Of a stretch of 64,000 nt of DNA, positions 39,483 through 42,161 are shown piece by piece; positions within the stretch are counted from its first letter, which is position 1; each line of letters begins with the position of its first letter. The notes under the pieces were generated by a model, which was not told the DNA's origin, made no database searches, and saw only the letters and a list, made by a program, of their open reading frames with translations. This stretch comes from Escherichia phage vB_EcoP_PE006. Position numbers and translations under genes: made by a program. The DNA lies in the sequence record OQ938541.1, one strand, 5' to 3'.

Positions 39483-39692
39483 TTAATATTCTTTTACATA
39501 ACAAACCACTAAGGTTCCCATTTCTGACAGTGTTGATTTATGTAAGCTTACTTTACTATAAATCTTTGGGGCCATCTTAAGAGCCTTCTTAAAACGGCGA
39601 GCATCTTTACGAGTAGCAAAGTGCTCTGTAACAGGTATAGCCGGGTCTTGGTAGAGGTAATATACCACCGTCCAATATTTTTTCATAATCAA
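39483..39692 (-). CDS. small protein, member of a 4-copy paralog family
   Basis: ...TRKDARRFKK...SLHK...VCYVKEY aligns with the three tandem genes at 41546-42161. Confidence 0.4.
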   Translation of the reverse strand: MIMKKYWTVVYYLYQDPAIPVTEHFATRKDARRFKKALKMAPKIYSKVSLHKSTLSEMGTLVVCYVKEY

Positions 39693-39961
39693 ACACCTAG
39701 GGCAGTAGTTAAGAATGCTTTCAGGTTTGCTTCGGTCTGCATACCAGAGAGGCTGTAGTGTGTACCGCTGTTACGGTCAGGTACAACGAAAGCAGGGATG
39801 CTACGAACCCCGTACTTAACAGCTTGTTCACGACCATCACCCTCAAGGATGTTAATCTCTTCCACTTCTACATCAAACTCCTTAACAACCTTCTCAAAGG
39901 TAGGAGCCATTGCTTTACATGGAGCACACTGATCACTATAAAACTTAATTACTTTAGACAT
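39689..39961 (-). CDS. thioredoxin-like protein (CAPC active site)
   Basis: MSKVIKFYSDQCAPCKAM ... RSIPAFVV (cis-Pro); start at internal ATG 39961 with AAGGAA SD. Confidence 0.7.
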   Translation of the reverse strand: MSKVIKFYSDQCAPCKAMAPTFEKVVKEFDVEVEEINILEGDGREQAVKYGVRSIPAFVVPDRNSGTHYSLSGMQTEANLKAFLTTALGV

Positions 39962-39962
39962 T

Positions 39963-40139
39963 CTATTCCTTGTTAATAAACAGGTTGATATGACGTTGGG
40001 TAGCAGGAACAACAATAAAAGATTTATACTGACCTTTTGCTAAGTCATGAGCAATCTTCTTTGTCTGACCAAGACCCATCACACAGCCACTAACAATAAT
40101 GGCGTGTGCTTGCAACTCTTCAGGGAGTTTTAGTTTCAT
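39963..40139 (-). CDS. hypothetical small protein
   Basis: 58-aa ORF MKLKLPEELQAHAIIVSGCVMGLGQ... between the membrane paralogs and thioredoxin. Confidence 0.25.
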   Translation of the reverse strand: MKLKLPEELQAHAIIVSGCVMGLGQTKKIAHDLAKGQYKSFIVVPATQRHINLFINKE

Positions 40140-40151
40140 TCTTCAGGTTCC

Positions 40152-40337
40152 TTACAGCATAGCAAGAATGATAATAAGAGGTAATGTTATAGCGAAATTA
40201 ATAAGAACAGCGCTGCCTAGCTTGATAGCTTTAACATCCTCTTCTGATGGGTTTTCTTTAATTGCTAAATTTCGAGCTTTATATATAACAGTACCAATTA
40301 TTAACGACCACACGGCCCACACAATCAGTGAAATCAT
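40152..40337 (-). CDS. small two-TM membrane protein (paralog 1)
   Basis: MISLIVWAVWSLIIGTVIY ... ITLPLIIILAML. Confidence 0.4.
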   Translation of the reverse strand: MISLIVWAVWSLIIGTVIYKARNLAIKENPSEEDVKAIKLGSAVLINFAITLPLIIILAML

Positions 40338-40346
40338 ATCAAACCC

Positions 40347-40526
40347 TTATGCAGTCAGGAGGTGAAGCAGGAATGGGATAACAACAGCTACGACAACCAT
40401 GATGGTTGATGCTGTTTGAATCTCACCTTTCTTGTCAGGAGTTTCTTCAATAAGCTTGCCAGAAGCCCAATAGATACCACCACCAATAAAGACAGCCCAA
40501 ATACCCCATACGATTGCTGATAACAT
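40347..40526 (-). CDS. small two-TM membrane protein (paralog 2)
   Basis: MLSAIVWGIWAVFIGGGIYWASGKLIEE...VVVAVVIPFLLHLL, similar to the adjacent gene. Confidence 0.35.
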   Translation of the reverse strand: MLSAIVWGIWAVFIGGGIYWASGKLIEETPDKKGEIQTASTIMVVVAVVIPFLLHLLTA

Positions 40527-40587
40527 ATATCTATATCCTTATAAATAAGTTCGCCCCACCTCGGGTTAGGAGACAGGGCGGAGGTTT

Positions 40588-41187
40588 TTAGTAAGACACA
40601 TCGCCACTTGAGTGGGACATGTTGCTCTTGACGAAGTAGCAATACTTGCCAAGACCTTCATTAATTTCTTGAAGCATACTCTGATCAACTGGATAAGTGG
40701 CTAAATCACCATCAAACTCATCCATCTTCTCAATAATACACATCAAGGTCATGCACATATCAGAGAGCATACCGTCCATATCTAGGTCAGCATTACCCTC
40801 TGAGAACCAAGCATGGGAGAGATAATTGGCTGCTGTAGCGTCCACTTTAACACAGTGGTAACGCATACGTTCAGCAATACGATCTCCTACTTGTCGTGCG
40901 TAATCTTCCAGCTCATCAAACATACCATGAACACCCTGAAATCCTGCACCAGAGACGTTCCAGTGGTAGTTTTTAGCTTTAATATGCAAGAGTTCCATGT
41001 TAGCTTGTAAGCAGCTCAGGATGTGTTCTAGGCTGTTTCCACTAATCATACCCTGCATTGTTTCAAGGCGAGAGATTGAAAGCTCAGATCGGTCTAACAT
41101 ATTGTATTCGACACGACCAATATCAGGTAAATCAAAGACATTCTTATGCATTTGGGTTATCTCCATCAAGTTCAACTGAATTAGCAA
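40588..41187 (-). CDS. Dps/ferritin-like protein
   Basis: NYHWNVSGAGFQGVHGMFDELEDYARQVGDRIAERM matches the Dps HW.V.G..F..H..F.E.....D.IAER signature. Confidence 0.6.
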   Translation of the reverse strand: MLIQLNLMEITQMHKNVFDLPDIGRVEYNMLDRSELSISRLETMQGMISGNSLEHILSCLQANMELLHIKAKNYHWNVSGAGFQGVHGMFDELEDYARQVGDRIAERMRYHCVKVDATAANYLSHAWFSEGNADLDMDGMLSDMCMTLMCIIEKMDEFDGDLATYPVDQSMLQEINEGLGKYCYFVKSNMSHSSGDVSY

Positions 41188-41473
41188 CGTTACGTTCGAT
41201 GTTTGCCATCACTTGCTGCGTTATGACAATACAGTTCTGTGGGTCTACTGACTTAGAACGCCCCATTTCAGGGTCATACACCTTAACTCGCTTAGCAGTT
41301 GAACCTGTAACCTGAAGAACCTTCAACAAATATCCCTGATTACCAATAGACCAAGCAACAACATCACGATTCTTGATAAAGCGACCAAGCATATCACGAT
41401 GATAAAACTGTTGCATCACCTTGGATTTTGTAATCTCTTCAGTGGGCGGGGCCACTTTACTCAAATCTAACAT
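41144..41473 (-). CDS. hypothetical protein
   Basis: 109-aa ORF; AATGTATA-like element ~40 nt upstream. Confidence 0.4.
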   Translation of the reverse strand: MLDLSKVAPPTEEITKSKVMQQFYHRDMLGRFIKNRDVVAWSIGNQGYLLKVLQVTGSTAKRVKVYDPEMGRSKSVDPQNCIVITQQVMANIERNVANSVELDGDNPNA

Positions 41474-41512
41474 AACTCTCTCCTGTAAAATACAAATTCT
41501 TATTGTACTCTA

Positions 41513-41521
41513 TATACATTT
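41513..41521 (-). promoter_or_regulatory. AAATGTATA promoter-like variant (- strand)
   Basis: Reverse complement of tatacattt, ~40 nt upstream of the ATG at 41473. Confidence 0.3.
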
Positions 41522-41545
41522 GAGAGTTACCATATCTACTACCAA

Positions 41546-41755
41546 TCAGTAGTAAACATTCCGAGATAGCATACAAGTACCTTCTGAGAATTCAATCCAA
41601 CGATGTATGCTAACATGTTCAACTATACCGACCAGAGCTTTCATGTTCTTTTTAGCAATACGAGCCTCTTTGCGAGTGTTAAACAGTTTGATATTATCTT
41701 TACCTATGTGTTGTTCATGATTCCAAACAACACGAATAGCCCACATCTTTTTCAT
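41546..41755 (-). CDS. small protein, paralog family member
   Basis: 69 aa; ...TRKEARIAKK ... SIHRWIEFSEG ... VYY. Confidence 0.45.
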   Translation of the reverse strand: MKKMWAIRVVWNHEQHIGKDNIKLFNTRKEARIAKKNMKALVGIVEHVSIHRWIEFSEGTCMLSRNVYY

Positions 41756-41964
41756 CAGTAGTGTACCTTTCCGCTGATATAAACACGACCAGAGGAATAC
41801 TCCTTGGCCTTATGGATACTGATACTATTGACCACGTCACCAGTAAGCATGGTCTTTTTAAAATCCCGAGCTTGTTGGCGAGTAGGTAGTGCAGTCATAG
41901 TCATACCACCTGATGCCCACTTAATCTTTGCTAACCAAAACTGTCTCATAGTGATTGGCCTCAT
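41755..41964 (-). CDS. small protein, paralog family member
   Basis: 69 aa; ...TRQQARDFKK ... SIHKAKEYSSG ... VHY. Confidence 0.45.
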   Translation of the reverse strand: MRPITMRQFWLAKIKWASGGMTMTALPTRQQARDFKKTMLTGDVVNSISIHKAKEYSSGRVYISGKVHY

Positions 41965-42161
41965 TAGTAATAAACCTTACTGTTGGCAATAAAAGCACCT
42001 TCGTTATTCACAATAGCTTTTCCTATTGTAAACTTGTTAAATCTAAAAGTAGACTTGTATTGATTTTTGACCCTACGTGCGTGATCTCGAGTCTTAACAA
42101 AATCTACAGACACTAAAACTCCAGTCTTTTTATCATATACACGAACAATCCACTTTTTCAT
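41964..42161 (-). CDS. small protein, paralog family member
   Basis: 65 aa; ...TRDHARRVKN ... KVYY. Confidence 0.45.
   Translation of the reverse strand: MKKWIVRVYDKKTGVLVSVDFVKTRDHARRVKNQYKSTFRFNKFTIGKAIVNNEGAFIANSKVYY

Follow-up and report, generated by a model that had tools for sequence, protein, structure and literature searches.

The 64,000-nucleotide stretch of Escherichia phage vB_EcoP_PE006 that was analysed here (sequence record OQ938541.1; hereafter the window) carries four small paralogous genes on its minus strand, three of them in tandem, and their products evidently belong to an old multigene family of stand-alone proteins of ~8 kDa, PHROG 4939. We named the members of the trio C, B, and A, in the order of their transcription, and the separate copy D. 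The proteins of the family are strongly basic and predicted to share a β-β-α-β-β fold with a conserved basic helix, their genes are under net purifying but relaxed selection and evolve several-fold faster than the neighbouring genes for enzymes, and the variation of A appears to result from allele exchange by recombination, even between genera, and not from point-mutational diversification. As to their function we tentatively favour the possibility that the proteins bind a polyanion, most probably nucleic acid, by means of this helix, and that the variable parts set the partner specificity.

The initial annotation had described the four open reading frames (ORFs) and taken them for paralogs; all four are present. 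Paralog C (41964-42161; 65 amino acids (aa), isoelectric point (pI) 10.4) is the first gene of the trio, followed by B (41755-41964; 69 aa, pI 10.6) and A (41546-41755; 69 aa, pI 10.0), and D (39483-39686; 67 aa, pI 9.75) lies between the genes for thioredoxin and ThyX. A-D are 29-34% identical on the amino-acid level, and each of them matches a single profile, phrog_4939, from end to end (67 positions, of which 1-67 or 2-67 are covered), with E values of 8e-24 (C), 7e-28 (B), 4e-29 (A), and 5e-25 (D). Moreover, their pairwise Smith-Waterman scores exceed those of shuffled sequences, with z values against 1000 shuffles of 13.0 (A/B), 10.0 (A/D), 7.3 (B/D), 5.8 (C/D), 5.5 (B/C), and 4.2 (A/C). 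The observed score is reached by 0-3 of the 1000 shuffles, the three being found for A/C, the weakest pair. A search with a hidden Markov model (HMM) of the family in all six frames of the window yielded no fifth copy.

The A/C score, together with the lack of detection of the family in the proteome of phage SU10, might be read as a sign that the similarity arose by chance or that the ORFs are not expressed genes. This explanation is effectively refuted, since the full-length profile matches (E 4e-29 to 8e-24) extend to all four proteins, the frames are conserved with a ratio of nonsynonymous to synonymous substitution rates (dN/dS) below 1 across 17 genomes, the genes have Shine-Dalgarno sites and are tightly packed on the coding strand, and the structure predictions are confident and mutually concordant.

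The tight abutment of the reading frames reported earlier is borne out by the junctions of the trio: the stop codon TAA of the dCTP deaminase gene (42162-42695, minus strand), directly upstream of the array, immediately precedes the ATG of C (TAA-ATG), and the C/B and B/A junctions, TAATG and TGATG, are one-base overlaps. Two start codons probably deserve revision. D most likely starts at ATG 39686 rather than at TTG 39692, as this ATG lies 2 nucleotides (nt) past the thioredoxin stop codon, is preceded by the Shine-Dalgarno sequence AGGTG and agrees with the orthologues, which are annotated with a length of 204 nt. B may start at the internal ATG 41949, which would shorten the protein to 64 aa, because GAGG is located 9 nt upstream and the orthologues of other genera start at this position. 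The sequence pattern that had been proposed for the four proteins is essentially right, with W5, T27, R28, A31, R32, K35, and the C-terminal Tyr being invariant or nearly so, but it does not hold in full: in C, S(I/L)HK is replaced by TIGK and KK by KN, and the C-terminal end of D is KEY.

AlphaFold2 models calculated with family alignments have a predicted local distance difference test score (pLDDT) of 87.7 for A and 92.5 for B, and both show the same order of elements, i.e. a long strand β1, β2, a three-turn helix, a long strand β3, and a short strand β4. Scored over 31 diverse family members, W5, R28, and R32 are invariant, and T27, A31, K35, and the C-terminal Tyr are at least 90% conserved, making the helix motif T-R-x-x-A-R-x-x-K(K/R) nearly invariant. 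Alignment positions 31, 34, and 38 of the helix are small or hydrophobic, and the periodicity of the alignment suggests that R28, R32, K35, K36, and K39 lie on another face. Within the orthogroups the helix has the lowest per-site entropy, and the highest values occur in the β1-β2 loop of A and D, the loop after the helix in B, and the β3-β4 hairpin of A and D. Sequence and fold searches of the Protein Data Bank (PDB) gave no significant relative among solved structures, the matches being at noise level for a model of 69 residues. The best of them, the core of photosystem I subunit PsaD, a topoisomerase III domain, and the C-terminal domain of CapRel, are 5-15% identical, have scores typical of generic small α/β sandwiches and share neither a motif nor context nor a plausible function with the family.

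All of the 117 family proteins that were compared in this respect have a pI of 9.7-11.1, as compared to a median pI of 8.1 for the other small ORFs of the phage, and the copies of the window carry a net charge of +7 to +11 over 65-69 residues. Binding of a polyanion is favoured because this basicity is kept by every member and because the invariant residues are Arg and Lys of the exposed type. According to this reading, the basic helix would contact a polyanionic target, i.e. phage or host DNA or RNA, and the β1-β2 loop, the loop after the helix and the β3-β4 hairpin would provide each paralog and allele with a different partner or specificity. The copies behave as accessory factors, with B as constant core and A, C, and D as dispensable members that are exchanged by recombination. 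Three points weigh against this proposal. First, about one quarter of the small ORFs of the phage are also very basic, so that charge alone is weak evidence. Second, the invariant arginines could be structural, e.g. by forming salt bridges to the carboxylate of the C-terminal tyrosine. Third, the 34 proteins that were identified in a preparation of SU10 include none of the A-D family; this non-detection is, however, uninformative, as the sample was virion-enriched and small basic proteins of ~8 kDa yield few tryptic peptides.

As phrog_4939 the family already has an entry in PHROG, and every related genome lists its genes as hypothetical; 'hypothetical proteins' of phiEco32, 172-1, NJ01, SU10, Paul, KBNP1711, and others are members. 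The entry gives no function and does not record the four orthogroups with their distinct conservation and their presence or absence, and in the literature we found no paper that treats the phrog_4939 genes as a family or assigns a function to them. Searched with the family profile, 5.8 billion proteins gave 99 clusters, and a filter-free HMMER scan of 1.84 billion representatives at 50% identity gave 22; a broader profile run against the 5.8 billion proteins added no fusions, annotated relatives or new lineages. The members are 64-79 aa long, except for a form of 87 aa, whose start codon was apparently called too far upstream, and a fragment of 48 aa, and not one of those collected has a fusion partner, a Pfam domain or an informative name. 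In Pfam-A, A, B, and D of the window have no match and C matches only DUF5893 (E 0.055, 13.9 bits as compared to a cutoff of 25), and among the 31 diverse members nine families are matched by one member each, with a best E of 0.043 and none over its gathering threshold.

Among isolated phages, tblastn finds the family confined to Gordonclarkvirinae of Escherichia and Shigella, and with the distant member P0105 as query it gives zero matches. Diverged metagenomic members reside on contigs that keep the gene order of the window. Additionally, gene LAh9_94 of Aeromonas phage LAh_9 (8460-8687 of the locus extract) encodes a protein of 75 aa that matches the family profile with 30.7 bits in its N-terminal two-thirds and has a different C-terminal part, so that the family extends in diverged form past the phages of E. 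coli. LAh9_94 is located two genes upstream of ThyX in a phage that also encodes a sigma factor of the ECF type. In a Foldseek search of predicted viral structures, the family is followed directly by uncharacterised proteins of 7-11-like phages of Salmonella and Cronobacter, a likeness on the level of predicted structure.

The phage itself is, judging by its sequence, a member of the genus Kuravirus of the subfamily Gordonclarkvirinae, which comprises phiEco32-like podophages, whose heads are elongated. From 38800 to 43000 the DNA of the window is 92-97% identical to that of Escherichia phages 172-1, NJ01, XT73, and MN05 and ~90 others, and from ~26 kb to the end of the window at 64 kb the genes are on the minus strand, consistent with the GC skew. 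Five metagenomic loci and the genomes of 17 isolates, the latter from three genera, were compared, and in all of them the genes follow the same order: dCTP deaminase, the family genes in one to four copies, a spacer, a gene for a protein of 109 aa, a Dps/ferritin-like gene, small membrane proteins, thioredoxin, D, which is optional, and ThyX. In some of them an HNH endonuclease gene or a small gene unrelated to the family lies between the dCTP deaminase gene and the copies.

Such a neighbourhood might indicate that the paralogs form hetero-oligomers or bind dCTP deaminase (Dcd), ThyX or thioredoxin as subunits in dNTP supply or replication. The coupled junctions of the array (see above) fit this notion, as do the places beside Dcd and ThyX, which even divergent metagenomic phages have in common with Kuravirus, the position of the LAh_9 copy near ThyX, and the models, in which the four-stranded sheet and the single helix would leave one sheet face open, an arrangement often used for oligomerisation. 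However, a complex of fixed stoichiometry is hard to reconcile with a number of tandem copies that varies from one to four and with the absence of C, D, and even A from genomes in which Dcd and ThyX stay, and a conserved order within a vertically inherited phage module is by itself no proof of a functional linkage. We thus regard this alternative as quite improbable.

The position of the genes also bears on the time of their expression. The 72-bp spacer between A and the gene of the 109-aa protein (41474-41545, minus strand) contains TTGGTAGTAGATATGGTAACTCTCAAATGTATATA, which is conserved in 20 of 20 related loci including the most divergent ones. The core of this motif matches tAATGTAtA, the consensus promoter element of the phage sigma factor phi32_gp36 (PMC8948821), the matching segment in the window being AAATGTATA (41513-41521, minus strand). 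In SU10, CDS69-125 were assigned to the early and CDS25-68 to the middle class by homology with phiEco32 expression data, and a promoter was placed upstream of CDS68 (PMC4281155). CDS68 is the gene of the 109-aa protein, i.e. the spacer motif coincides with the published boundary between early and middle genes. As this boundary falls at the spacer after A, the three genes of the trio would be the last early genes and D would be a middle gene, an assignment that follows the literature by homology with phiEco32. A generic scan for sigma-70 promoters gave no excess over shuffled sequences.

A neighbour-joining tree of 64 distinct members consists of four clean groups, which are sorted by gene position and not by genome. 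Orthogroups A and B span the genera Kuravirus, Nieuwekanaalvirus, and Suseptimavirus, D is likewise present in all three, and C occurs in Kuravirus and Nieuwekanaalvirus. As the groups follow position across genera, the duplications are older than these genera. A recent tandem duplication is ruled out by the same clustering, and gene conversion between A and B, which the endings 'SYISGDVYY' and 'VYISGKVHY' had brought to mind, was rejected as the last 48 nt have a nucleotide identity of only 35-46%. B is the sole member present everywhere, i.e. in 17 of 17 isolate genomes and in the metagenomic relatives. A is missing in one genome, C in five (among them EcoN5, SU7, ECBP2, and Bas88) and D in seven (phiEco32, IMEP8, Bas89, O18-011, MN03, EP335, and SU7), and divergent relatives have two to four tandem copies.

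In pairwise Nei-Gojobori comparisons of each relative with the gene of the window, dN/dS is 0-0.40 for B, the lowest of the family, and this protein is nearly invariant within Kuravirus. The values are 0.13-0.29 for D, 0.08-0.60 for A (mostly 0.4-0.6 within Kuravirus) and 0.25-0.84 for C, 0.84 being the maximum of the family. For the neighbouring genes, i.e. dCTP deaminase, the 109-aa protein, the Dps-like protein, thioredoxin, and ThyX, dN/dS is mostly 0-0.12, with thioredoxin reaching 0.17 and ThyX 0.18. The initial annotation had regarded the proteins as diversifying. This holds insofar as they evolve faster than their neighbours, genomes have gained or lost C, D, and occasionally A, and A recombines, but it does not hold insofar as the orthogroups are ancient and stable and every dN/dS is below 1. 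A recently duplicated, diversifying array is ruled out by the low identity of the paralogs and by the ceiling of 0.84.

Most of the differences between close relatives are concentrated in A. With their counterparts in 172-1 or NJ01 the copies of the window share 83-100% identity, except for A, which is 94% identical to the protein of 172-1 and only 59% identical to that of NJ01, and yet the region as a whole is 96% identical to NJ01 on the DNA level. Synonymous divergence (dS) of A from NJ01 is 0.68, as compared to ~0.2 in the flanking genes. Segment-wise nucleotide identity divides the 3' third of A (nt 127-213), which encodes β3 and β4, into three sequence classes. Within a class this cassette is mostly 92-100% identical (83-89% for the subgroup of Paul and WFI101126), whereas the DNA identity between classes is 50-68%. 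The classes are paired with different 5' segments, and IMEP8 and O18-011 have a common 5' part and different cassettes. Moreover, in KBNP1711, a phage of another genus whose A gene is located at 3501-3710 of its locus extract, the cassette is 99-100% identical to those of phiEco32 and MN03, although B and C of this phage have ~52% protein identity to those of the window, a pattern that indicates a recent gene exchange between genera.

The initial annotation had suggested that the proteins interact with the host or counteract its defence; all copies may be inhibitors of host proteins in host takeover or anti-defence, each paralog or allele binding a different host factor or variant, with the hypervariable hairpin tracking an arms race or escaping host sensors that recognise the protein. 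We take this for a serious contender, if a doubtful one. Small, phage-restricted proteins suit such a role, A-C are assigned to the early genes, most of which serve host takeover in phiEco32-like phages, the presence of C, D, and sometimes A varies, the 3' alleles of A are swapped like cassettes between genera, and dN/dS is several-fold above that of the neighbouring genes. However, not a single dN/dS comparison exceeds 1, the orthogroups are ancient with B nearly constant in Kuravirus, and D is found among middle-class genes of nucleotide metabolism. Additionally, the strong positive charge is opposite to that of DNA-mimic anti-restriction proteins, neither a regulator nor a known anti-defence gene lies next to the copies, which is weak evidence, and the fold matches do not rise above noise for a 69-residue model.

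Polyanion binding by the conserved helix remains the reading that we prefer. One may go further and speculate that the family constitutes a new class of accessory effectors, in which a fixed basic scaffold carries a swappable β-hairpin cassette that retargets the protein to variant host factors or evades immune sensors. This is unlikely, but if true the paralog set would be a previously unrecognised module for anti-defence or sensor evasion, with a fold unseen in solved structures. Small lineage-specific paralog families are common in the early and middle regions of phages and nothing in our findings will surprise a phage specialist. The immediate gain is modest: four hypothetical proteins in more than 90 E. 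coli phages that are candidates for therapy become a defined family, for which there are a confident model of the fold, a helix as candidate for binding, one constant member (B), three variable ones (A, C, and D), and a shortlist of constructs for work on binding, toxicity, and host range. The most useful experimental lead is the variation of the A cassette, a natural experiment in which this site accounts for most of the difference between phages with more than 90% identity elsewhere, and which could reveal the partner of the variable hairpin.

The other three paralog pairs that had been listed for the window are real as well, each pair matching a single PHROG with z values of 14.6-23 against shuffles; phrog_6814, phrog_6570, and phrog_9296 are all PHROGs of unknown function. 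All of these genes are on the minus strand. The tandem pair 35491-35775 / 35777-36028 (94 aa and 83 aa, phrog_6814, z = 23) has pI values of 9.8 and 10.4 and is located just downstream of an ORF of 573 aa (33167-34888) and one of 140 aa (34905-35327). The dispersed pair consists of 59760-59981 and 62333-62551 (phrog_6570, z = 16.8). The third pair, in tandem at 40152-40337 / 40347-40526 (61 aa and 59 aa, phrog_9296, z = 14.6), encodes proteins with two transmembrane segments. Its member 40152-40337 exists in two forms in close relatives, with 89-100% versus ~34% identity, and in some genomes this gene is lost jointly with a gene of 58 aa (39963-40139). A terminator-like hairpin (40552-40580, minus strand) with an 11-pair stem, seven G-C pairs and a T-rich tail directly follows the Dps/ferritin-like gene and precedes the two small membrane-protein genes.

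Upstream of the dCTP deaminase gene a nucleotidyltransferase of 451 aa is encoded (42705-44060, minus strand), for which only a sub-threshold match to the head domain of poly(A) polymerase was found, and its orthologue on a metagenomic contig has a faint precomputed match to Gad2, a family of anti-Gabija nucleotidyltransferases. The window contains no tRNA genes and thus provides no local link to this enzyme. dCTP deaminase itself occurs in two allele classes, with ~92-100% versus 59% amino-acid identity to the protein of the window, and in three annotated genomes of the 59% class (EcoN5, Bas89, and O18-011) an HNH endonuclease gene lies just downstream, which suggests that the allele replacement is linked to a homing endonuclease. 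ThyX (38811-39467) is ~80% identical where an HNH endonuclease gene sits immediately upstream (XT18, O18-011, and SU7). In 172-1, the nearest relative of the phage, ORF91 (4860-5066 of the locus extract), a gene of 68 aa that is absent from the window, is inserted between dCTP deaminase and C; considered as an additional family copy, it was rejected as its sequence is unrelated. ORF91, the HNH genes, and other small genes at this place mark the site just downstream of dCTP deaminase as an insertion hot spot.

Several small phage proteins with known targets invite comparison. Sequence and fold comparisons with solved structures gave no significant match of the family to T7 Gp2, T7 Gp5.7 or anti-CRISPRs and no clear one to T4 Dmd, and the family differs from such proteins in being uniformly very basic and in comprising four ancient paralogs, one of them beyond the early region. 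The searches of the PDB by sequence and fold gave no characterised anti-defence relative above noise, and beside the copies in the compared genomes neither of the marks of an anti-CRISPR or anti-defence locus is found, i.e. an adjacent Aca-type helix-turn-helix regulator or a known anti-defence gene. The DNA-mimic anti-restriction proteins Ocr and ArdA have an acidic surface, and the uniformly strong positive charge of the family argues against anti-defence of this type.

Among nucleic acid-binding proteins, the N-terminal hybrid-binding domain of RNase H1 (Cauli_VI, PF01693) was rejected as a relative, as it is matched by one of the 31 members (E 0.15) and the predicted order of elements differs; PF01693 is a β-β-α-β-α domain with an F-x-T-x-x-E-A motif. 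The family presumably also resembles the N-terminal domain of IF3 in a general α/β manner. Neither HU nor Sso7d has the β-β-α-β-β order, and proteins of this kind are absent from the best fold matches. Nevertheless, in its general features the family is most reminiscent of the class of HU/IHF and Sso7d/Cren7: its members have a size of ~7-8 kDa and are strongly basic, they have conserved Arg and Lys residues on a helix, where the periodicity of the alignment suggests that they are exposed, and this helix is predicted to lie beside a β-sheet that carries aromatic residues.

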